From contig OZ024744.1 in assembly GCA_964016885.1 (NCBI GenBank), forward strand, positions 97,278,001 through 97,342,000: a DNA stretch of 64,000 nt, given 5' to 3'. Both the position numbers and the translations under genes were made by a program. Under the pieces are notes generated by a model, which was not told the DNA's origin, searched no databases, and worked only from the letters and a program-made list of their open reading frames with translations. Every line of letters begins with the position of its first letter. Within the stretch, counting starts at the first letter, position 1. This DNA is from Eledone cirrhosa (Eukaryota). Shown here one piece after another: positions 17,431 through 55,095 of this stretch.

Positions 17431-20400
17431 TGTTGTATATGGACCTTGATGTATGTATTACCTGCTTGTGTATTGTATGTGGTCCTAGATGTATGTATTA
17501 CCTGCTTGTGTGTTGTATGTGATCCTAGATGTATGTATTACCTGCTTGTGTGTTGTATGTGGTCCTAGATGTATGTATTACCTGCTTGTGTGTTGTATGT
17601 GGTCCTTGATGTATGTATTACCTGCTTGTGTGTTGTATATGGTCCTTGATGTATGTATTACCTGCTTGTGTGTTGTATGTGGACCTAGATGTATGTATTA
17701 CCTGCTTGTGTAATGTATGTGGTCCTAGATGTATGTATTACCTGCTTGTGTGTTGTATATGGTCCTTGATGTATGTATTACCTGCTTGTGTGTTGTATGT
17801 GGACCTAGATGTATGTATTACCTGCTTGTGTAATGTATGTGGTCCTAGATGTATGTATTACCTGCTTGTGTGTTGTATGTGGACCTAGATGTATGTATTA
17901 CCTGCTTGTGTAATGTATGTGGTCCTAGATGTATGTATTACCTGCTTGTGTGTTGTATGTGGTCCTAGATGTATGTACTACCTGCTTGTGTGTTGTATGT
18001 GGTCCTAGATGTATGTATTACCTGCTTGTGTATTGTATGTGGTCCTTGATGTATGTATTACCTGCTTGTGTGTTGTATGTGATCCTACATCTATGTATTA
18101 CCTGCTTGTGTGTTGTATGTGGTCCTAGATGTATGTATTACCTGCTTGTGTGTTGTATGTGATCCTAGATGTATGTATTACCTGCTTGTGTGTTGTATGT
18201 GGACCTAGATGTATGTATTACCTGCTTGTGTGTTGTATGTGGTCCTAGATGTATGTATTACCTGCTTGTGTGTTGTATGTGGTCCTAGATGTATGTATTA
18301 CCTGCTTGTGTGTTGTATGTGGTCCTAGATGTATGTATTACCTGCTTGTGTGTTGTATGTGGTCCTAGATGTGTGTATTACCTGCTTGTGTGTTGTATGT
18401 GATCCTAGATGTATGTATTACCTGCTTGTGTATTGTATGTGGTCCTAGATGTATGTATTACCTGCTGGTGTGTTGTATGTGGTCCTAGATGTGTATATTA
18501 CCTGCTTGTGTGTTGTATGTGGTCCTAGATGTATGTATTACCTGATTGTGTGTTGTATGTGGACCTAGATGTATGTATTACCTGCTTATGTGTTGTATGT
18601 GGTCCTAGATGTATGTATTACCTGCTTATGTGTTGTATGTGGTCCTAGATGTATGTATTACCTGCTTGTGTGTTGTATGTGGTCCTAGATGTATGTATTA
18701 CCTGATTGTGTGTTGTATATGGTCCTTGATGTATGTATTACCTGCTTGTGTGTTGTATGTGGTCCTAGATGTATGTATTACCTGATTATGTGTTGTATGT
18801 GGTCCTTGATATATGTATTACCTGCTTGTGTGTTGTATATGGTCCTTGATGTATGTATTACCTGCTTGTGTGTTGTATGTGGTCCTAGATGTATGTATTA
18901 CCTGCTTGTGTGTTGTATGTGGTCCTAGATGTAAGTATTACCTGCTTGTGTGTTGTATATGGTCCTTGATGTATGTATTACCTGCTTGTGTGTTGTATGT
19001 AGTCCTAGATGTATGTACTACCTGCTTGTGTGTTGTATGTGGTCCTAGATTTATGTATTACCTGCTTGTGTGTTGTATGTGGTCCTAGATGTATGTATTA
19101 CCTGCTTGTGTATTGTATGTGGTCCTAGATGTATGTATTACCTGCTTGTGTGTTGTATATGGTCCTCGATGTATGTATTACCTGCTTGTGTGTTGTATGT
19201 GGTCCTAGATGTATGTACTACCTGCTTGTGTATTGTATGTGGTCCTAGATGTATGTATTACCTACTTGTGTGTTGTATATGGTCCTTGATGTATGTATTA
19301 CCTGCTTGTGTGTTGTATGTGGTCCTAGATGTATGTATTACCTGCTTGTGTGTTGTATGTGGTCCTAGATGTATGTACTACCTGCTTGTGTGTTGTATGT
19401 GGTCCTAGATGTATGTATTACCTGCTTGTGTGTTGTATGTGGTCCTAGATGTATGTATTACCTGATTGTGTGTTGTATGTGATCCTAGATGTATGTATTA
19501 CCTGCTTGTGTGTTGTATGTGGTCCTAGATGTATGTATTACCTGCTTGTGTGTTGTATATGGTCCTTGATGTATGTATTACCTGCTTGTGTGTTGTATGT
19601 GATCCTAGATGTATGTATTACCTGCTTGTGTGTTGTATGTGATCCTAGATGTAAGTATTACCTGCTTGTGTGTTGTATGTGGTCCTAGATTATGTATTAA
19701 CTGCTTGTGTGTTGTATGTGGTCCTAGATGTATGTATTACCTGCTTGTGTGTTGTATGTGGTCCTAGATGTATGTATTACCTGCTTCTGTGTTGTATGTG
19801 GTCCTAGATGTATGTATTACCTGATTGTGTGTTGTATGTGGTCCTAGATTATGTATTAACTGCTTGTGTGTTGTATGTGGTCCTAGATGTATGTATTACC
19901 TGCTTGTGTGTTGTATGTGGTCCTAGATGTATGTATTACCTGCTTGTGTGTTGTATGTGGTCCTAGATGTATGTATTACCTGATTGTGTGTTGTATGTGA
20001 TCCTAGATGTATGTATTACCTGCTTGTGTGTTGTATGTGGTCCTAGATATATGTATTACCTGATTGTGTGTTGTATGTGGTCCTAGATTATGTATTACCT
20101 ACTTGTGTGTTTATGTGGACCTAGATGTATGTATTACCTGCTTGTGTGTTGTATGTGGTCCTAGATGTATGTATTACCTGCTTGTGTGTTGTATATGGTC
20201 CTTGATGTATGTATTACCTGCTTGTGTGTTGTATGTGATCCTAGATGTATGTATTACCTGCTTGTGTGTTGTATGTGATCCTACATCTATGTACTACCTA
20301 CTTGTGTATTGTATATGGTCCTAGATGTGTGTATTACCTGCTTGTGTGTTGTATGTGGTCCTACATCTATGTACTACCTACTTGTGTATTGTATATGGTC

Positions 20401-21746
20401 CTAGATGTGTGTATTACCTGCTTGTGTGTTGTATGTGGTCCTAGATGTATGTATTACCTGCTTGTGTGTTGTATGTGGTCCTAGATGTAAGTATTACCTG
20501 CTTGTGTGTTGTATATGGTCCTTGATGTATGTATTACCTGCTTGTGTGTTGTATGTGGTCCTAGATGTATGTACTACCTGCTTGTGTGTTGTATGTGGTC
20601 CTAGATTTATGTATTACCTGCTTGTGTGTTGTATGTGGTCCTAGATGTATGTATTACCTGCTTGTGTATTGTATGTGGTCCTAGATGTATGTATTACCTG
20701 CTTGTGTGTTGTATATGGTCCTCGATGTATGTATTACCTGCTTGTGTGTTGTATGTGGTCCTAGATGTATGTACTACCTGCTTGTGTATTGTATGTGGTC
20801 CTAGATGTATGTATTACCTGCTTGTGTGTTGTATGTGGTCCTTGATGTATGTATTACCTGCTTGTGTGTTGTATGTGATCCTAGATGTATGTATTACCTG
20901 CTTGTGTGTTGTATGTGGTCCTAGATGTATGTATTACCTGCTTGTGTGTTGTATGTGGTCCTTGATGTATGTATTACCTGCTTGTGTGTTGTATGTGATC
21001 CTAGATGTATGTATTACCTGCTTGTGTGTTGTATGTGGTCCTAGATGTATGTATTACCTGCTTGTGTGTTGTATGTGGTCCTAGATTATGTATTACCTAC
21101 TTGTGTGTTTATGTGGACCTAGATGCATGTATTACCTGCTTGTGTGTTGTATGTGGTCCTAGATGTATGTATTACCTGCTTGTGTGTTGTATATGGTCCT
21201 TGATGTATGTATTACCTGCTTGTGTGTTGTATGTGATCCTAGATGTATGTATTACCTGCTTGTGTGTTGTATGTGATCCTACGTCTATGTACTACCTACT
21301 TGTGTATTGTATATGGTCCTAGATGTGTGTATTACCTGCTTGTGTGTTGTATGTGATCCTACATCTATGTACTACCTACTTGTGTATTGTATATGGTCCT
21401 AGATGTGTGTATTACCTGCTTGTGTGTTGTATGTGGTCCTAGATGTATGTATTACCTGCTTGTGTGTTGTATGTGGTCCTAGATGTATGTATTACCTACT
21501 TGTGTGTTTATGTGGACCTAGATGTATGTATTACCTGCTTGTGTGTTGTATGTGGTCCTAGATGTATGTATTACCTGCTTGTGTGTTGTATATGGTCCTT
21601 GATGTATGTATTACCTGCTTGTGTGTTGTATGTGATCCTAGATGTATGTATTACCTGCTTGTGTGTTGTATGTGGTCCTAGATGTAAGTATTACCTGCTT
21701 GTGTGTTGTATGTGATCCTAGAATTATGTATTACCTGCTTGTGTGT
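17431..21746 (+). repeat. 40-bp satellite, ~108 copies
   Basis: Unit GTATGTATTACCTGCTTGTGTGTTGTATGTGGTCCTAGAT with point variants. Confidence 0.98.
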
Positions 21747-22174
21747 TTTATCTTTCTTTTTTCCTTTCCATTTTCTTTCTTTTTTTTCTCTTTTATTTGT
21801 AACATTATGTTGACGGTTATACCTTAATAAAATTATCAGTATATATATATATATTTATATGGTAGAGTACTAACATTGGTACTACATCCAGTAATTTAAA
21901 TGTCCACATGTACCTATGTATGTGGGTATATGTATGTATATAACGTATGAATACATACATATATATGTATATAGGTATGTATATTATGTATGTATGTATG
22001 CAAGTATGTATGCATATACATATGCATGTATGTATATATATACATATGTATGTATATATGTATGTGTGTACGTATGTCTGCAAGTATGTATGTACATATA
22101 CATGTATGTATGTATATATACATATATATGTATATATGTATATAAGTATGTATGTATATATGTATGTATGTACC

Positions 22175-37621: not shown

Positions 37622-37708
<87 letters not shown>

Positions 37709-37903
37709 ACGAAGGAAATGTGATAAGGAACCAGGTGGACCATAACGCACCAAAGTACTCAATACTTAGGGTAGTAGAGTGGGTAATAGGAACCAGTAAG
37801 ACCCCGACGGCTGAACTCAAGCCGTTTCGACGGCTAATTCTGGACTCCAGAATTAGCCGTCGAAACGGCTTGAGTTCAGCCGTCGGGATCTTACTGGTTC
37901 CTA
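37709..37903. repeat. Short element ending in a ~57-bp-arm palindrome, embedded in (TA)n
   Basis: ATAGGAACCAGTAAGA.CCCGACGGCTGAACTCAAGCCGTTTCGACGGCTAATTCTGGA-C-TCCAGAATTAGCC...TTCCTAT. The head is homologous to 44361-44445. Confidence 0.85.
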
Positions 37904-44324: not shown

Positions 44325-44360
<36 letters not shown>

Positions 44361-44362
<2 letters not shown>

Positions 44363-44492
44363 CGAAGGAGGTGTGGTAAGGAACCAGATGGACTATAACG
44401 TACCAGAGTACTCAATACCTAGGGTAGTCGAGTGGGAAACAGGAAAATGTTTAACCCCTCCTCTGAGCTTGGAGGAGGGGTTAAAGATTTTC
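44361..44492. repeat. Second foldback element with a shared head
   Basis: Head AACGAAGGA..TGTG.TAAGGAACCAG.TGGAC.ATAACG.ACCA.AGTACTCAATAC as at 37709, then hairpin AGGAAAAT.TTTAACCCCTCCTC...GAGGAGGGGTTAAA.ATTTTCCT. Confidence 0.75.
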
Positions 44493-44595
44493 CTATGTAT
44501 ATATATATGACTGAACACACACGTGCATTTTTCTCAAACATTTTCCCGTTTCTTCCTCTTCTCACTCTCCTGTAACTTTCTATATCTTCTTTTAC

Positions 44596-44813: not shown

Positions 44814-44906
<93 letters not shown>

Positions 44907-45198
44907 AAAACAAATAACGAAACGAAAATAAATTTCGTTTCGTTTGTAACTCACTTTTGTATGACTGACGCTTAAACAATTAAGTTAAAAATGTACATCT
45001 ACATATGCATACTGAAATACTAGTATGCATATGAATACACACACGTATACATATGTAGATGTACCAAGTCTTTCACTGGTTACTTTACTGTGAGTATCCA
45101 GCTATTCTGTATGTAAACACACAGACAAACCGGTTTTTAGAGTCATACTGGTTTTTGAGGAAACACCTTTCCTCTATTCTCCAGAAAGCCAGACAAGG

Positions 45199-45243
45199 AA
45201 TATTGAACTAGTTTCGTTGTTGTTACAACTCATCAGCAATATT
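45199..45243 (-). ncRNA. Type I hammerhead ribozyme, copy 1
   Basis: AATATTG CTGATGA GTTGT AACA ACAAC GAAA C TA G T T CAATATT: 7-bp stem I, 5-bp stem II, palindromic ACTAGT stem III, GUU cleavage triplet. Confidence 0.88.
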
Positions 45244-45665
45244 TACCTATCTACCGGCCTTTCTGGAGAATCGTAAAAGCACATATCGTTATATGCTTTT
45301 TCTATGAAAATTAGTAGTGGGCAGACTAATTTGCATAGAGTGTGAGTACGTACCGGTTCAACGGGAGACGATAAAAACAAATAACGAAACGAAATTAAAT
45401 TTCGTTTCGTTTGTAACTCACTTTTGTATGACTGACGCTTAAACAATTAAGTTAAAAATGTACATCTACATATGCATACTGAAATACTAGTATGCATATG
45501 AATACACACACGTATACATATGTAGATGTACCAAGTCTTTCACTGGTTACTTTACTGTGAGTATCCATCTATTCTGTATGTAAACACACAGACAAACCGG
45601 TTTTTAGAGTCATACTGGTTTTTGAGGAAACACCTTTCCTCTATTCTCCAGAAAGCCAGACAAGG

Positions 45666-45710
45666 AATATTGAACTAGTTTCGTTGTTGTTACAACTCAT
45701 CAGCAATATG
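45666..45710 (-). ncRNA. Type I hammerhead ribozyme, copy 2
   Basis: As copy 1, with one mismatch at the distal end of stem I. Confidence 0.87.
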
Positions 45711-46132
45711 TACCTATCTACCGGCCTTTCTGGAGAATCGTAAAAGCATATATCGTTATATGCTTTTTCTATGAAAATTAGTAGTGGGCAGACTAATTTG
45801 CATAGAGTGTGAGTACGTACCGGTTCAACGGGAGACGATAAAAACAAATAACGAAACGAAATTAAATTTCGTTTCGTTTGTAACTCACTTTTGTATGACT
45901 GACGCTTAAACAATTAAGTTAAAAATGTACATCTACATATGCATACTGAAATACTAGTATGCATATGAATACACACACGTATACATATGTAGATGTACCA
46001 AGTCTTTCACTGGTTACTTTACTGTGAGTATCCAGCTATTCTGTATGTAAACACACAGACAAACCGGTTTTTAGAGTCATACTGGTTTTTGAGGAAACAC
46101 CTTTCCTCTATTCTCCAGAAAGCCAGACAAGG

Positions 46133-46177
46133 AATATTGAACTAGTTTCGTTGTTGTTACAACTCATCAGCAATATT
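46133..46177 (-). ncRNA. Type I hammerhead ribozyme, copy 3
   Basis: Identical to copy 1. Confidence 0.88.
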
Positions 46178-46597
46178 TACCTATTACCGGCCTTTCTGGA
46201 GAATCGTAAAAGCACATATCGTTATATGCTTTTTCTATGAAAATTAGTAGTGGGCAGACTAATTTGCATAGAGTGTGAGTACGTACCGGTTCAACGGAGA
46301 CGATAAAAACAAATAACGAAACGAAATTAAATTTCGTTTCGTTTGTAACTCACTTTTGTATGACTGACGCTTAAACAATTAAGTTAAAAATGTACATCTA
46401 CATATGCATACTGAAATACTAGTATGCATATGAATACACACACGTATACATATGTAGATGTACCAAGTCTTTCACTGGTTACTTTACTGTGAGTATCCAG
46501 CTATTCTGTATGTAAACACACAGACAAACCGGTTTTTAGAGTCATACTGGTTTTTGAGGAAACACCTTTCCTCTATTCTCCAGAAAGCCAGACAAGG

Positions 46598-46642
46598 AAT
46601 ATTGAACTAGTTTCGTTGTTGTTACAACTCATCAGCAATATT
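46598..46642 (-). ncRNA. Type I hammerhead ribozyme, copy 4
   Basis: Identical to copy 1. Confidence 0.88.
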
Positions 46643-47108
46643 TACCTATCTACCGGCCTTTCTGGAGAATCGTAAAAGCACATATCGTTATATGCTTTTT
46701 CTATGAAAATTAGTAGTGGGCAGACTAATTTGCATAGAGTGTGAGTACGTACCGGTTCAACGGAGACGATAAAAAGAGACGATAAAAAGAGATTGACACT
46801 CCTATGATAAATCAACCGCCTTGAACTCCTTTCCTGCTCTTTACTTCTGCTACGGTTTTTTTGCTGAATCTACGTTCTGTACTCTTGTATATTTATTTTT
46901 TTCTCCCTTACCTCCCCTTATATTTCACCTTTTCCTATGTCCCCCCCCCCCCCATATATTCTTTTTGCCTTGCCCTTCACATACCTATGTGTATGTATAT
47001 TTGTGTGTATATATATATATATATATGTATGTATGTGTGTGTGCATATATATGTATATGTATATATTTGTATGTGTATATGTATGTATATGTAGATAGAC
47101 CAGGTTTT

Positions 47109-47168
47109 TTTCATTCTGAAGATTGAATGAAAAATTTTTTGCTTTTAAGAAACGACTGGTGAATGGAA
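47109..47168 (+). ncRNA. Degenerate hammerhead (paralogue of 51163-51222)
   Basis: TTTCATT CTGAAGA TTGAATGAAAAATTTTTTGCTTTTAA GAAA CG ACT GG TG AATGGAA. It has a GUG triplet and a stem III mismatch. Confidence 0.6.
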
Positions 47169-47301
47169 TAATTGCCTTATGTTGCTTATTACTTTATTAT
47201 TTTACTACTATATATATGTATATGTAAGGTTCATATGAATTATCTAAGACTGAGTTTTACACACACATGTATATGTGTGTATATATATATATATGTATGT
47301 A

Positions 47302-49751
47302 TAATCACCTATAGATCCGGGGAACACACAAGCCAGGTAGATTATATCCTTACCAGAAGACGTGACAGAGTGTCTGTTGTAAACACTAAATCCCTCCCCC
47401 ATGAAGAATGCACCTCCCAACATAGACTGATAATTAGCGACCTCATAGTCAGGACGAGACGTACTCGACAGCAGGAGAGGACTATCCTCAGGAGAAAAAT
47501 ATGGAAGCTAAAGGACCCCACAGCCAGGAATAAATTTCAAAGCATATTACTTGATGCTTTCGACAGTAAGGAAGAACATTTAGAGTCGGACAATATAGAG
47601 GGAGAGTGGGAATTTCTGAAAGCAAACCTGCTGTTGGCGACAGACGAAGTCTGTGGCTGGAGCAGGCCTGTAGGCAGGAGGAGAGTAACATGGTGGTGGA
47701 ACAGTAAGGTGGAGGGGTCAATTAAGGCCAAAAAGCAGGCTTGGAAAGTATGGCGGGATGGAGGAAGTAGAGAAGACTATCAAGTGGCCAGGAGGAAAGC
47801 TAGGAGACAAGTGTACTTAGCAAGAAGGGAAGCTGAGGAAAGAAAGTTCAAGCATGTTCTACAACGCGATGACCAAAAACGTGAGGTGTTCAGGATTGCT
47901 AGGCAATGCGTCAAGGAAAACCGTGATATTGTCGGGGAGAAGTGTGTACTAAACGACGATGGCACACTTGCCATCACCGACGCTGATAAGAAGGTAGCTT
48001 GGAAGTGTCACTATGAAAGGCTACTAAATGAGGAGAATAAATGGGAGAAAGACAGTCTCCTCCATATCGACCCAATAGAGGGACCAGCAGTGTTAGTCGA
48101 GGGGAGTATAATAAGTAAGGCAATCAAGGATATGAAGACGGGTAAGGCGGCTGGGCCTTCGGAAATAGTTGCTGAGATGCTGAAGGCATCTGGCACGGTG
48201 GGACACACCATGGTCACCCGCATAGTTAACCAAGTCGTACAGAATGGGGTTGTTCCGAAGGACTGGCATAGCAGCATCATCGTTAACTGTTATAAGGGTA
48301 AAGGAGACGCCCTAGATAGGAGTAACTATAGAGGCATTAAATTAATCGACCAGGTCATGAAGGTCACGGAAAAAGTAATAGCGCAACTAATCAGAGAGAG
48401 AATTGACCTAGATGAAATGCAGTTCGGGTTTGTGTCAGGCAAAAGTACCACAGACGCTCTTTTCATAGTACGACAACTACAGGAGAAGTACCTAGCTAAA
48501 GGTAAACCCCTCTACTTAGCTTTTGTCGACTTGGAGAAAGCCTTCGACAGAGTCCCCCGCTCCATTATCTGGTGGGCTCTTAGAAAGCTAGGCGTTGACG
48601 AATGGCTTGTGAGGGCTATACAAGCCATGTATAAAGAAACAGTCAGCAAGGTTAGAATTAACAACGAATATAGTGAAGAGTTTAGCGTAAAAGTTGGCGT
48701 CCATCAGGGCTCTGTTCTCAGCCCACTACTATTTATTATTGCCCTTCAGGCTATAACAGAGGAGTTCAAGACAGGCTGCCCATGGGAACTCCTATACGCA
48801 GACGACCTGACACTCATAGCAGAATCAATGGCCGAGCTAGAGAAGAAATTCCAAACACGGAAGCACGGCCTAGAGTCAAAAGGACTTAAAATTAACCTGG
48901 CTAAGACCAAAGTACTAGTTTGTAGGAAAGAAAACAAGGCGGCGGTCCCTTCTGGGAAATGGTCGTGCTCGGTGTGTAGGAAAGGCGTAGGTAGAAACTC
49001 CATTTTATGTCCTAAATGCAAAGTATGGGTGCATAAAAGATGTAGTGGGATCACAGGTAAGCTAACTAAGAACATAGATTTTACATGTGGCCGGTGCTCT
49101 GGTGCAATAAGTAGCAGCAAGTGCCCACAAAATACTAGCTCTTTCAATTGCGCAGAGGGTTCTATAGAAATAGTGGACAGCTTCCGTTACCTGGGCGATA
49201 AAATCAGCAGTGGGGGAGGGTGCTCTGAAAGTACTGTAGCTAGAGTCAGAACTGGTTGGAAAAAGTTCAGAGAGCTTATACCACTATTAGCTGCTAAAGG
49301 GTTCTCCCTAAAAATGAAAGGCAGGTTGTACGATGCCTGCATACGAACAGCAATGCTGCATGGCAGTGAGACCTGGGCATTGTGTGCAGAGGATATACGC
49401 AGACTAGAGAGGAACGAAGCTTGCATGCTCCGCTGGATGTGTAACAGTAATATACGTGAACGGCAAAGCATAAACGAACTAAGGAAAAAATTAGAGATAA
49501 GAGGGATCAGATGTTGTTTACTCGAGAGAAGGCTACGTTGGTATGGACACTTGATGCGCATGAAAGTCGATAGCTGTATAACAAAGTGCAGGGCAATAAA
49601 GATAGACGGTAGTCACGGAATAGGCAGACCTAGAAAAACCTGGGACGAGCTGATAAACTCCGACATCACACACTTACACCTCTCCAAGACAATGTCACTG
49701 GACCGAGACCTTTGGCGGTACTCAGTAACAGAGAAGACCCGCCTTACCTAA
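47302..49751 (+). CDS. RTE ORF (partial EN, RT, embedded PHD-type zinc finger)
   Basis: NYRGIKL, QFGF, FVDLEKAFDRV, GVHQGSVLSP, LYADDL, FRYLGD, RLRWYGH. The first ~43 aa of the tracked ORF (from 47172) are flanking sequence. Confidence 0.9.
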
Positions 49752-50150
49752 ATATATAGTAAAACCTACTCCAGCCAGTAGGCATCTCTAACAAAATACA
49801 CCCCGTCCCACCACCCCCACCCCCACCCCATCCACACCACCCCGTTCTATGTAAAGTTATGTTGGTGCCGCGCCATCGAGGCCGAAACAAATGAGATCGT
49901 GTAGGTGTCACGACAAAAAAACACACAGTCCACGCTGTAATGTGGCCGTGTAGGCAACACGGTAAAAACCTCCCAGACCCACACTGTAAATGTGGTTGGT
50001 GTTAGGAAGGGCATCCAACTGTAGAAAACCTGCCAGACAGTCCTATGCGAGCAAGACAATCACTCTTGCCTCAAGTGGGACTACCCCCGTCCAAACCCAT
50101 GCAAGCGTGGAACACGGACGTTAAACGTTGATGATGATGATGATGATGAT
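47302..50150 (+). mobile_element. 5'-truncated RTE-clade LINE with uninterrupted ORF
   Basis: Starts inside the EN C-terminus (TYRSG...QVDYIL...SQHR) and ends GGACGTTAAACGT(TGA)n. Confidence 0.93.
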
Positions 50151-51162
50151 GTATGTATGTGTGTGTGTCTGTTTGTATTTGGTTGTGCGGGTTTATGATA
50201 TGTACGTATTTGTATGTGTATAATTGTATAGCTATGTATGTATATGTATGTGTGTATGTATACATATATGTGTGTGTGTATGTTTATATTTATGTATATA
50301 TATATATGTGTGTGTGTGTATAATTACATATACATATGTGTGTGTATAATTGTATACGTGTGCGTGTTTGTGCATGTATGTGTATGTATGTGTTTATGTA
50401 TTTGTATATGTATATTTATGTGCGAGAGTGTGTGTATGTATTTACTATTTTGTACGTATGTATACGTGCATTTGTGTGTATTACTTACCACGCGTGTCTG
50501 TCCAGTTAGCTGCGTTCTGTATCGCTGTCAAAAATTGTTTATATATATATACATTTTTTTTTTCTTATATTTATTTGCGTGTGTGAATATGTAGAGGAGT
50601 GCATTTATGTATGTGTATGTATGTACGTGTGTATATATGTATGATTGTGTGCATGTATGTATGTATGTTTATGTATGTGTGTATGGCTATGTTTGTGTAT
50701 GTGTATGCTTGTACACATATATATGTATATATGTGTATATATATGTATATATGTATGTATATGTGTGTATGTATATGTATTTATATTTATGTTTCTATGT
50801 GTATGTGTGTATATATGTATTTGTATGTATGGATGTGTTGATATTTATGTGCGTATGTATATGTGTTTGTGTGTATTTATATACACATATATGTGTGTAT
50901 ATATCTGTGCGTGTGTGTATGTATGAGTGTATGTATGTGTATATATATGTGTATGTATATGTATGTATATATATCTATATATATGTATATATATCTATAT
51001 ATATATATGTGTGTGTGTAAGTATGCTTTTGTGTTTTTTTGTGTGTGTTTGCATGTGTAGTTTTATTTTATTTTTCCTTTCCTTCTTCCTTCTCCAGCCT
51101 CACTTTCATATAGATTGCATTTTTGTTTTTAAAATCCAAATTCAATAAACAGACCAGGATTT

Positions 51163-51222
51163 TTTCATTCTGAGGATTGAAAGCAAAATCTTTTGCTTTT
51201 AAGAAACCACTGGTAAATGGAA
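51163..51222 (+). ncRNA. Intact type I hammerhead ribozyme
   Basis: TTTCATT CTGAGGA TTGAAAGCAAAA TC TTTTGCTTTTAA GAAA CC ACT GG T A AATGGAA: 7-bp stem I, long stem II, 3-bp stem III, GUA cleavage after 51215. Confidence 0.82.
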
Positions 51223-52327
51223 TAATTGCCTTATGTTGTTTATTACATAACTATATATATATATTAAAATAACAGATTAAAGTTTATATATTTGATATAT
51301 ATTTATCCTTATCGAGCCCTCTTTGGATTTTAGTCTTCAAATTTATTATTATTACTATATATATATATACTAGCTGAGCTACTCGGTGATACCCGGGTAT
51401 TTTATGAAAGTTACAATATATTTGGCACACATTTCAAAATATTTTACCATTCAAATATGATTGCTGAATTTTAACCAAAGTAGGAATTATAGCAGAATAT
51501 TTATTGCTGTTTGGTCAAAGTAAATCATCTAGATAAAAATATTATTTTTTTCCAGTGGTGATTTTTTGAATACTGCTCCCTATTACAGTCAGCATAGTAC
51601 TCATAGATGAATCATTAGGTATGTTGTCAGTGAAAAGGGCATGACCAAAAAAATACATTTAGATTTTTATTTATTTATACTTTTCTTTCTTTTTTTTTCT
51701 TTTTTGCTCAATCTGACCCTCTGAAATTCAAACAACATGTAAAGACTATTTTAAAAACCATAAATAAAATAAGAAAATAAATTTACCATTGGTTTATGAT
51801 TGAATGAAGCATTTACTTACTCATTTCTGTAATTCGGGGAAAGTGTATTTAAATTTGTACACTGTAGCTTTCACCAATCTTTGCCTCTATGGCAGTAGGA
51901 TCTTGTTTGAGGGAGATTTGTTTTCTATTTCTATTAGCTATACCAACAGTTATAGTGGCTCACATGACATTCATAGATACATACACACACATGTATGTGT
52001 GTAAGACAGTTGTTTGTGATTTGAAATGGATTTTGCTAATATTTCTAGTAGATCGAGTTATCACATAGAACCATTCAGTTTTGCTTCATACATATATACA
52101 TACCTGAGAAAGTAAGGTGGGATTTGAAGGAAATTTGGCTGCTATTTCTACCCAACAAAGTCCTCACTTATACTACTTTATATAGCAGAGGTACCCGGGA
52201 ATGCCTGCACATTCTTCCAAAGTAACACCATGCAGTAAATTTGCGGCTTCAGAATTCTTTGCAAACTACATGACTAAGGAATTAGGATCTGTGTGTATTG
52301 TCATTGAATGAGGAATTACAACATTGC

Positions 52328-54615
52328 TCATTCAAAAGCCTCTGGATAAACAACATTCTTGGTTTTGCCCTGTGGTGCCACAATGAAGAGACAATCAGAG
52401 TTCCCAATCCTTGTTGTGCCAACATGCAGTTGACCATGTGAAAAAACAGGATCTGCCATATTCAACCCAACGACTTTCAATGATTGCCCTTGAGATTTAT
52501 TAATGGTCATGGCAAAACTGAGCCTGATCGGAAATTGAAGTCTTTGAAATTCAAATGGCAAATCAGTTGGCTTCAGAGGTATTCTGGGAATGAAACAATT
52601 GTCACCAGCAAATTTTCCTGATATGATTGCCACTTCTAGAACATTGGACATCATATTTTTGATGATGAGTCTTGTGCCATTACAAAGTTTTGCAGGATCC
52701 AGATTGCGAAGTAGCATAACCGATGCTCCAAGCTTCAGTATCAGGTTGTGTGGAGGAATTCCCGCTTGTTCAAGACTGTTCAAAATTCAGTTTACAACCT
52801 GGTCTTGAGAAGTGATTGTGTCAACTGATTTGTAGCATATTTTCTCTCCCGATAACATCTCCAGCAGCCTTCTGTTGATTTCTTTCACAGCAACATTTTT
52901 AGGTGCTAAGATTGCTCATTCACAGAGCCATTTCGGATCACATTGCCTGGTCTGAATGTTTGGAAACACTCTGGCAATCAGTTCTTGTTCTGTGTAAATG
53001 ATATGGCCAAATGACAACTGAATATGGTCATTGGAGTCCTTTTCAAGAAGTCCATTTCCCAATTTAAGAGGTTAGATGGCAAACTCACTGACACCTTCGT
53101 CACCAGTTAAGTGCACTCGCATGTTGGTTGTAAGGCTCAGCAGCTGAAAGTGGGGCCAGAGATAGGATGTTTTCAGACAGGCATTGACCTGATCAGCTCG
53201 AGTCCCTCGAAGAATTACAGGCAGAGTTTGTCTGAAATCACCAGCAAGAACCATTGTCGCTCCTCCCATTATGCAACTATTTTCTCTCAGATCCCTTATC
53301 GTCCGGTCCAAAGCTTCAATTTCTCCTTTATGGCTCATAGTAGCTTCATCCCAAATTATCATCTTGCATGTTTGCAGAAGCTTGCCCTTGGGTGAGTTCT
53401 TCTTGATGTTGCAAAAAGTCTGTTCATGCCGTGTGAGATCTATGGGCAGCTTAAACATGGAGTGTGCAGTTCTTCCACCATCCAGAAGTGTTGCTGCAAT
53501 GCCACTTGAAGCCACAGCAAGGGCAATATGTTGCTTTTGACGAACTTTTGCAAGCAGGAGGTTTATGAGGAATGTCTTGCCTGAGCCAGCAGGAGCATCG
53601 ATGAAGAAAAGTCCTCCCCTGTCATTTTGAATGTTTTCGATGATGTAGTAGGCGTATTTCTGGTCATCCATCAATCGAGGTTCATTTTCATTCACAAACT
53701 TACGCAATGCTTGAATGTCGTAGTTTGTCTCCTGAAGAATGTCTTGTGCTACATCCATTTCTTCATCTGCCTCTGGCATCCCGCAGTTAGCTAATGTGTT
53801 ATTCATTGTCTGAACTCGATGGGACAAGTCACAGAGAAATTGATTGTAAATCCTGGGGGTATATTCCATATACATATTGCCATGATGTCTTCGGGCTAGC
53901 TGTAGATAGTCGTCCGTGATATTGTTTTTGTACTCCTGCCAGAATAGATGAGTTTCATCAATTCCACATGTGGTGAGCATAATAGCAAATAATTGTCTTA
54001 TTTGACTGGCTACTTGAGTGATTGCTGCTTCTTCTAGGCACTTCTTCCACTATCATGCAGGAGTCCATGCTGTTTACATGCTTCTTGGTATGTGGCGCAC
54101 TTCCTTCCTCTGAAGCACCTAAGATCCTCAAATGACGTTGGTCCTCGAACAGTATGCAGAAGTAGCTGTAAATAAAAACATTCTCTGTTGTTGGGATTGA
54201 CATTGTAAACACGCCCAATAGCATCACTTGACTTGACTTCATGACCTTCCACTAAATTACCCTGCTTTCTTCGATTCCAGGTCTTGCAATTGGTTGAGGT
54301 GTAGTATGTTGGGACTTCAGCATATAGGAGAGATCGAGCAAATTCATCATTCTGGCAGACTTTAAAGAAAGCAGTTAGTGTAGTGTCATGTGATGCTTGT
54401 GACAACTGATGAGCAGTGATCTCAGTGAAGTACACTCTCTGTCCATATTCCAGATGGAGTGCGAGGTTGACCTTTGTTGAGTGGCGTTGGTGGATATCAA
54501 ATCCAAAGATTCGCCAAATAGCTTCATTGCTGGAGATGTATGGACCTGTTTGATACCGTTTGACCTCATCCAGCCCACCATCATTGAGTTCTTTGTCAGT
54601 AATAAAGGTAGCCAT
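52328..54615 (-). pseudogene. Helitron RepHel C-terminal half (PIF1-family SF1B helicase), frameshifted
   Basis: ISSNEAIWRIFGF, VRGPTSFEDLR, DAPAGSGKTF (Walker A), IIWDEATM, LAGDFRQTLPV, LCNGTRL, QFPIRLSFAMTINKSQGQSL. Confidence 0.95.
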
Positions 54616-55095
54616 GTCACATTATTACACACCACACTCTTTCCGAAATAGAAACAACTATAGAATGTATTGTTCACTCAGTAAAGTTGTTTTAAATGAT
54701 CTCTTTATATGAATGTATATTAGGTGTAATTAATTTTAGACATATGTAGAAAACATTGGGTATTCAGATTGTATTCTGAAATTATCATTTTTTATCCAAC
54801 TTCCCTCCAAAAAACGACAAACACTACAAAAAAAATATTTTCTGTGTTAATTCAAATAACAGCGGAAAATAATATATTCAAATAATATCTATTAAACATA
54901 CCGTTTTTTTTTTTGTCTGTTAAATACATACATATATACAACTTCTATAAAAGCATATAAAAGATTTCTTTAGACATATGTAGAAAATAAGCTTTGATGG
55001 TAACATATATGTGTGTGTAAATCTGCGGGATTGCATACAGTTTTTTTTTTTTTATCCCGTTTGTAAAATAAGTTGGATTACTTTGTATAAATAAT

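Follow-up and report, generated by a model that had tools for sequence, protein, structure and literature searches.

A non-LTR retrozyme family of Eledone cirrhosa: a selected RNA fold, two fixed insertion ends and genomic evidence for priming by Penelope-like elements

Layout of the locus

The window, by which we mean the whole 64,000-nucleotide stretch of the Eledone cirrhosa genome that was analysed (contig OZ024744.1, positions 97,278,001 to 97,342,000), contains a compound insertion in a (TA)n tract. From left to right, the tract is followed by four tandem retrozyme monomers that start from the outer site, a 13-nt reiterated junction, a truncated Hydra-clade Penelope-like element (PLE) that runs to its inner site, and (TA)n once more (Table 1). 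The array spans 44904-46768 in units of 467, 467, 465 and 466 bp that differ from one another at 2-5 positions; the monomer length of 467 bp given by an earlier sequence-only reading is thus right for two units but not for the other two. No ORF of at least 150 aa was found across the array. The PLE-type tail of the monomer corresponds to 44904-44972, and the long-range helix of 45141-45148 with 44959-44966 closes a domain that holds the long stem and site B, the latter lying inside a 5-bp hairpin 15-20 nt 3' of that stem. Because the PLE 3' UTR resumes beyond the LINE that interrupts it, which we take to be of the RTE type, the LINE appears to be a later insertion, and the compound insertion would end on the right at 51252. 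Elsewhere, the window holds a 108-copy minisatellite with a 40-bp unit and a strong strand skew (17431-21751) and, on the minus strand at 52328-54621, ORF fragments of a PIF1-like helicase, a protein typical of Helitrons.

Table 1. Features of the compound insertion in window coordinates
Feature	Position	Strand	Remarks
(TA)n target tract	44836..44903	.	left end of insertion
Retrozyme array	44904..46775	-	monomers 44904-45370, 45371-45837, 45838-46302 and 46303-46768, plus 7 bp; RNA sense is minus
Site A, putative outer RT start	44904..44904	-	monomer position 1; 12 nt 3' of hairpin 44916-44944 (RNA sense)
Site B, putative inner start	44973..44979	-	monomer positions 70 and 75, range 69-80
Tail hairpin	44916..44944	-	12-13 bp; counterpart in sister family
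Long-range helix 45141-45148 / 44959-44966	44959..45148	-	pair probability >0.7; compensated in sister family, two states
AT-rich long stem	44993..45064	-	20 bp; inner hairpin 45023-45042
ACCGGU, 5' partner of predicted kissing pair	45129..45134	-	covariation with sister family
ACCGGU, 3' partner of predicted kissing pair	45352..45357	-	in small hairpin loop; closing stem covaries
Hairpin	45157..45174	-	7 bp; double changes at 2 pairs
Clamp helix, extends hammerhead stem I	45176..45271	-	sister family: other sequence, still paired
Type I hammerhead	45199..45243	-	RF02275 match and covariation
Hairpin	45275..45300	-	11 bp
Hairpin carrying ATGCAAAT at 45336-45329	45302..45338	-	ATGCAAAT conserved in sister family
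Junction	46763..46792	+	13-nt unit reiterated 2.3 times, then 2 nt common to PLE
5'-truncated Hydra-clade PLE, first part	46791..47300	+	last ~10 ORF codons and 3' UTR; hammerhead-like motif near 47117
LINE within PLE 3' UTR	47301..50150 (boundaries approximate)	+	RVT_1 E 5e-32; PLE UTR continues beyond
Remainder of Hydra PLE 3' UTR	50150..51252	+	second hammerhead-like motif near 51170; ends at PLE inner start site, then (TA)n

The hammerhead and the retrozyme family

The hammerhead, found in one polarity only, consists on the minus strand of CUGAUGA (45236-45230), stem II (45229-45216), the stem III palindrome ACUAGU (45212-45207) and a GUU triplet, and its cut is predicted to fall between 45206 and 45205. 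The core is intact in all four units. The Rfam model RF02275 scores 38.6 bits in unit 1 and 41.5 in unit 2 (E 5e-8), under the gathering score of 52, and at the gathering threshold Rfam gave no matches within the window. Matches to miRNA families, obtained with an E-value threshold, were discarded, as they lie far under gathering and reflect the AT-rich stem. A palindromic stem III is described as a design that requires two copies for cleavage (PMC4209133, available in part), and the predicted energy of the palindrome duplex here is -8.2 kcal/mol. Only one of nine retrozyme dimers tested in vitro is reported to cleave in the available text of bioRxiv 2026.07.22.740005, which speaks against the presumption of activity.

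Pattern counts in the 3.0-Gb genome gave 5,098 exact matches to the 36-nt core, 4,238 to stem-II variants and 13,882 to the core of a sister family (backwards control 0 in each case), with 767 for other relatives (backwards control 7), or about 24,000 matches in total. Nearly all of the 100 stem-II variants listed carry a compensatory U-A to A-U swap. Subfamilies are 88 to 100% identical, and identity to the sister family is 55-60% in global and 61-62% in local alignment. The sister family (L056:7579-9001, L057:1876-2500, L111-L140) has an expanding (TA)n tract in its long stem and units of about 430 to 540 bp in which the fold is kept. A further retrozyme family is likely represented at L047:6500-7400, where a unit of about 459 bp is tandemly repeated in (TA)n and combines a hammerhead-like core with a stem II of great length.

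Metazoan non-LTR retrozymes, their self-paired folds, their circles and PLEs as candidate partners were described by Cervera and de la Pena (2020, PMC7229834, seen in part). All testable features of this class are present here: short tandem non-coding units of low GC, each with one type I hammerhead and without LTRs, thousands of dispersed copies, and a stable self-paired predicted fold. The weak palindromic helix III, the association with PLEs as proposed partners, and a size within the 51-972 bp given in the available text likewise agree. The element is a new family of this known class, and its hairpin-rich branched fold is in itself an expected, published property of non-LTR retrozymes rather than a novelty. 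What this family adds to the known fold is its insertion anatomy.

Predicted fold of the monomer

The sequence-only reading described the monomer on the plus strand as built largely of hairpins, and every stem that it listed is present in unit 1. Counted on that strand, there are 12 contiguous pairs at 44916-44944, 15 at 44993-45064 (20 if one C.A is allowed, which is a G-U on the minus strand), 12 at 45002-45033, 7 at 45157-45174, 13 at 45176-45271, 11 positions with one C.A (again G-U on minus) at 45275-45300, and 5+8 pairs at 45302-45338; the sequences of the long-range pair, AACCGGT at 45128 and ACCGGTT at 45352, were also found. Folding energy relative to shuffled sequence was one of two checks proposed beforehand, and its outcome was clear: the minus strand of unit 1 folds at -162.9 kcal/mol (z -10.4), with shuffles averaging -98 kcal/mol (sd 6.2) and 0 of 100 as good. 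The plus strand reaches -145.1 kcal/mol (z -9.9), circular folds give z -9.8 (60 shuffles each), and five sub-segments of the monomer are individually significant (z -3.5 to -7.7), while all 14 control windows of equal length from the 64 kb lie between z -2.3 and +1.4.

The best fold and the hammerhead are both on the minus strand, which is the relevant RNA, and the earlier plus-strand description is corrected in that respect. The competing inner hairpin proposed at 45002-45033 drops out as a by-product, being absent from the minus-strand fold; the base that perfects the outer stem 44993-45064 is present in 21 of 31 family copies (alignment columns 166/207). The long-range pair AACCGGT/ACCGGTT is also missing from the minus-strand minimum free energy (MFE) structure, but it crosses two other helices, which accounts for its absence and makes it a predicted kissing loop, and it is supported by covariation. 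In the monomer MFE the core CUG of the hammerhead pairs with stem III. The clamp around the ribozyme (45176-45271), which had been thought capable of stabilising or regulating it, persists as a helix in the sister family despite a different sequence, and this conservation of pairing supports a putative structural role.

Covariation and selection on the fold

Compensatory change among diverged copies, the second check proposed beforehand, is seen in hammerhead stems I and II, the long-range helix and the kissing pair. Within the family, 31 representatives of 77 distinct monomers, chosen as differing by more than 4 positions, were aligned with the window monomer alone as structure reference, and 98% of the cells pair. 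Changes on both sides occur in 5 of 129 pairs, a count reached by 6 of 500 shuffles, with slid controls up to 3; in these alignments the within-family covariation signal appears modest, in a young family. Variants common to copies are depleted in stems (24 in 258 paired columns against 47 in 209 unpaired), whereas private variants are not (36 paired against 30 unpaired; Fisher p=0.017 for shared versus private).

The sister family folds with the same order of helices as the window monomer. Across 13 sequences from both families, 12 of 38 chosen pairs are changed on both sides, with slid controls at or below 2; these changes represent few independent events, and helix 2 is partly misaligned. 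The long-range helix was compared between families by motif, since MAFFT misaligned that region. The kissing pair is ACCGGU/ACCGGU in this family. In the sister family, 22 loci, some of which overlap, have UCAGGC/GCCUGA and 4 have UCGGGC/GCCCGG; of the 12 remaining sister locus-variant rows, 3 are fully paired and 9 carry one mismatch. Three of its six pairs are thus altered on both sides in the sister family, and there is a further compensated state. The stem that closes the 45352-45357 loop covaries as well, reading CGU/ACG in 17 and CGC/GCG in 10 of the 31 monomers, and at about 40% divergence the hammerhead retains its core, its stems and its loop 2, with compensation. The RNA fold of the monomer is real and selected. 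The compensatory changes, together with folding far below that of shuffles, bear out the suggestion that selection has acted on a compact RNA structure rather than on ordinary satellite DNA.

Two further patterns were considered and set aside. A strand-specific G-U wobble bias was rejected, as shared stem changes give G-U 7 times and A-C 7 times on the ribozyme strand. An A-to-G excess in the template RNA was not established, at 21 against 16 across all private alleles; the count is 12 against 1 among private paired changes in the 31 monomers and 7 against 1 among alleles found on both arms. At L081/L088/L094, three clustered A>G changes in ribozyme sense (monomer positions 428-433) occur on both arms of a 20-unit insertion, possibly reflecting an edited template. 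Three low-depth contigs of run X5, covering window 44979-45177, carry A>G clusters on the plus strand (24 places A>G against 4 T>C), a pattern that resembles hyper-edited antisense RNA and, coming from a run of unrecorded kind without matched DNA, is only a hint.

Insertion anatomy

A total of 135 insertions were mapped and their ends tallied with BLAST. They were drawn from the best BLAST matches (among which site A is over-represented), the first exact matches on contig C1, 58 loci picked by their A end, and 2 loci hand-picked as possible exceptions; L236, a very short A+B locus, was excluded by the length filter. Of 220 mapped outer ends, 126 fall at monomer positions 1-3 (site A) and 94 at 69-80 (site B, mostly 70 and 75), and 214 have a TA-rich flank. 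Two-armed insertions are head-to-head arrays in (TA)n, with the RNA 3' ends facing outward. Where both ends were mapped (n=85), 83 insertions are A+B, none A+A and 2 B+B, the last being the hand-picked loci; the remaining 50 are one-armed, have arms too short for BLAST or other ends, or run beyond the fetched stretch. Genome-wide counts on the reverse strand gave 1,184 A ends and 892 B ends, the B pattern missing one subfamily, from which about 2,400 dispersed A-type ends (2 x 1,184) are estimated. The sister family starts at the two homologous sites.

The two arms of an insertion are closely alike. In all 48 rows (two of which merge neighbouring insertions) the difference between them is 1.8% or less, against up to 12% between subfamilies, and 16 private alleles are found on both arms, compared with 51 on one arm. 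Near-identity of the arms and private alleles common to both mean that each event drew on a single template or a single source locus. Inversion points show an even distribution along the monomer, and no strong stop was found at the cleavage site, with 9 of 178 cDNA ends within 296-308 where about 5 are expected. Arms reach up to 31 units. Some arrays are uniform (11 of 11 and 6 of 6 units identical), and others are heterogeneous, with up to 16 differences, or periodic, a pattern compatible with local duplication at a later stage or with linear multimers as templates. Microhomology overlaps are found at 54 of 89 junctions, a figure inflated by BLAST extension.

Penelope-like elements and fusions

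Elements with GIY-YIG endonucleases are numerous in this genome (10,595 candidates, of which 150 were scored). The right flank at 46792-46990, which has 1,272 candidate copies of up to 99% identity, begins in the last codons of an ORF with Hydra motifs. Its relatives show a C-terminal GIY-YIG domain without CCHH, a CxCx5C linker, RWK and DKT motifs, CxxC and CxH near the C terminus, and a (TA)n target; the Hydra-clade assignment is by such motifs, as set out in section 11 of PMC8557442. Pfam gave no match on the EN part. In Hydra PLEs the outer site lies 64-71 nt beyond the inner one, compared with a retrozyme tail of 69-75 nt, and two-armed loci are inner+outer in 6 of 6 cases resolved among 20 fetched, and in L230. 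Two Neptune-type families have inner and outer ends 62 and about 40 nt apart. The autonomous PLEs of this genome thus follow the same inner/outer rule as the retrozyme.

In the window, the array is fused head-to-head to the 5'-truncated Hydra-clade PLE, outer site to inner site. Among 46 insertions that are not cleanly two-armed, 4 have head-to-head PLE junctions, involving three PLE families. The fusion at L181/L234 is outer+inner with a 4-nt overlap, L257 is outer+outer and has a short stretch of inverted PLE sequence where the two elements meet, and L068 is likewise head-to-head, the PLE end having been mapped in the other three. Assignment of the other partners to Neptune-type PLEs is by motif, with which Nematis is also compatible. 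PLEs share TA tracts with the retrozyme at 21 of 58 flanks, and the PLE library makes up 4.7% of flank bases; since the two are neighbours, deletion between them could mimic fusions. Against chance, 4 of 46 gives p=0.02 with orientation counted and p=0.17 without. The best candidate partner at this locus is the Hydra-clade PLE, with Neptune-type PLEs as possible further partners.

None of 33 GIY-YIG loci or 13 odd-hammerhead loci contained a pseudo-LTR with homology to the monomer (150 of the 10,595 candidates scored). The 3' UTRs of Neptune-type PLEs (L046, L047, L051, L053, L055, L057) contain a hammerhead-like motif with UUGAAAA replacing CUGANGA and a palindromic stem III. Similarly, the Hydra 3' UTR (46791-51252) carries two hammerhead-like blocks that resemble each other and, leaving the LINE aside, are separated by about 1.1 kb, and its transcripts could release a circle between them.

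A proposed mechanism and its rivals

The fused Hydra PLE, the similar tail length and the other fusions together point to twin priming, driven by a PLE, on a single and probably circular RNA template. In the reading that we consider likely, the minus-strand RNA of this non-LTR retrozyme, for which self-cleavage as a double hammerhead is predicted, circularises, and copies of the element are written into (TA)n by a PLE reverse transcriptase-endonuclease; the insertions are genomic evidence, short of proof, for two-site priming by a PLE on such a template. Tandem arrays would be transcribed, two hammerheads would pair through the palindromic stem III and cut out monomers, and the monomers would be ligated into 467-nt circles. 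A dimer of the PLE protein would then nick both strands of (TA)n, with its subunits priming 70 nt apart on the same template, one of them at site A and one at site B. Each subunit would run round the template for a variable distance before microhomology joined the two cDNAs. Protection of the circle would fall to the conserved branched fold, which would also display the two U-rich start sites immediately 3' of long hairpins.

A more specific proposal, which we put forward tentatively and would not yet back against its competitors taken together, is that a single circular ribozyme RNA is held by the PLE dimer at two structurally defined sites about 70 nt apart, one for each nicked strand, and that copying rolls from both. 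The tail would then be the fixed spacing between the active sites, the retrozyme fold with its kissing loop would mimic a landing pad without sequence homology, and the fusions would name the partners (Hydra, probably Neptune).

An improbable, though not negligible, alternative keeps the same element and PLE machinery but makes the template an uncleaved, linear multimeric transcript, the hammerhead being mostly idle and the fold selected only for recognition by the reverse transcriptase. The existence of heterogeneous arrays agrees with this, as does the pairing of the core CUG with stem III in the monomer MFE, and in the available text of PMC11167929 an anole PLE inserts in vitro without a need for hammerhead cleavage. 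However, the hammerhead core, stems and loop 2 have been kept with compensation across about 40% divergence, the long-range helices close across the monomer in a circle-like manner, and arrays of up to 11 identical units occur.

It is very unlikely that a structured non-autonomous element has instead been moved by LINE twin priming, with the PLE fusions arising as deletion artefacts between neighbours in TA tracts, even though LINE reverse transcriptases are present, junctions show microhomology (54 of 89 overlapping), and the PLE fusions are few and spread over three families. LINE twin priming uses the RNA 3' end and a variable internal site rather than two fixed internal sites, and this pattern differs from that seen here. 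In contrast, starts fixed at an inner and an outer site, together with a single-ended tail, are a PLE signature (PMC8557442, available sections) and are also found in the PLEs of this genome. Least credible of all is a satellite or fold-back DNA in which the hairpins are DNA inverted repeats and unequal crossing-over builds the arrays out of a decayed pseudo-LTR: both strands fold well, some arrays have periodic variants and growth by this route is proposed in the available text of bioRxiv 2026.07.22.740005, but such an origin is contradicted by about 2,400 dispersed A-type ends at fixed positions, by multimeric arms of a single subtype and by the covariation of hammerhead and kissing pair, although secondary array growth may follow this route.

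Comparison with known systems

Non-LTR retrozymes have been linked to PLEs by co-occurrence and pseudo-LTR homology, with unequal crossing-over invoked for array growth (Li, Clavereau and Pollet 2026, 10.64898/2026.07.22.740005, text available in part). Relative to that work the parent pseudo-LTR was not found here among the loci searched, and, as far as the available parts of it and of PMC7229834 extend, fixed starts, two-armed insertions, the tail and fusions are described only for the present family. Within a limited coverage of the literature, no published report was found of the A+B rule, PLE fusions or the kissing pair in retrozymes.

Features given for PLEs are arms that are inverted and 5'-truncated, (TA)n targets and a tail confined to one end (Craig et al. 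2021, PMC8557442, partial text). The retrozyme resembles Hydra and Neptune PLEs of that account in its (TA)n targets, its tandem and inverted 5'-truncated arms and its single-ended tail, and it resembles non-autonomous Chlamys elements such as MRC1 in forming multicopy head-to-tail derivatives. Unlike PLEs, it has a monomer that lacks an ORF, its arms hold as many as 31 repeats of a circularly permuted unit, and its tail measures 69-75 nt against the 30-40 bp reported there; and whereas non-autonomous Chlamys elements are described in the same sections as resembling their partners at the 3' end, no such likeness is seen here. A short repeat of about 100-140 bp in TA tracts, at window 44359-44500 and 37706-37792 and in 38 of 295 loci (some overlapping), is possibly another non-autonomous PLE derivative.

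In the anole PLE Poseidon PAc, two internal RT start sites delimit the tail, and both strands are nicked in vitro (Frangieh et al. 2024, PMC11167929, partial text). The AT-rich targets, the two internal starts that define the tail, the nicking and extension of both strands and the predicted dimer all parallel the scheme proposed for the retrozyme, but the start sites in vitro are apparently alike on the two strands, whereas the ends here differ in 83 of 85 insertions. As far as their available text goes, the retrozyme and PLE papers leave open the identity of the enzyme that moves animal retrozymes and the way in which the tails and inverted arms of PLEs arise. To these questions the present family brings thousands of young insertions, a strict A+B rule, two mapped start sites, a fold supported by covariation and a named candidate partner, and the evidence suffices to design a direct in vitro test and a genome-wide census of fusions.

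Hammerhead viroids and satellite RNAs, also a subject of PMC7229834, are small, branched RNAs that bear hammerheads. The retrozyme RNA is likewise small, branched and equipped with a hammerhead and a predicted kissing interaction, but it is genome-encoded, has its hammerhead in one polarity and spreads through DNA copies, where a viroid or satellite RNA would have ribozymes in both polarities and no genomic DNA copy. One further element of the monomer lies on the minus strand at window 45329-45336, where ATGCAAAT, presumably the sequence known as the octamer motif, is conserved between the two families inside a hairpin. By analogy it is a possible snRNA-type promoter element, such as that cited for newt satellite 2 in the available part of PMC2220036.
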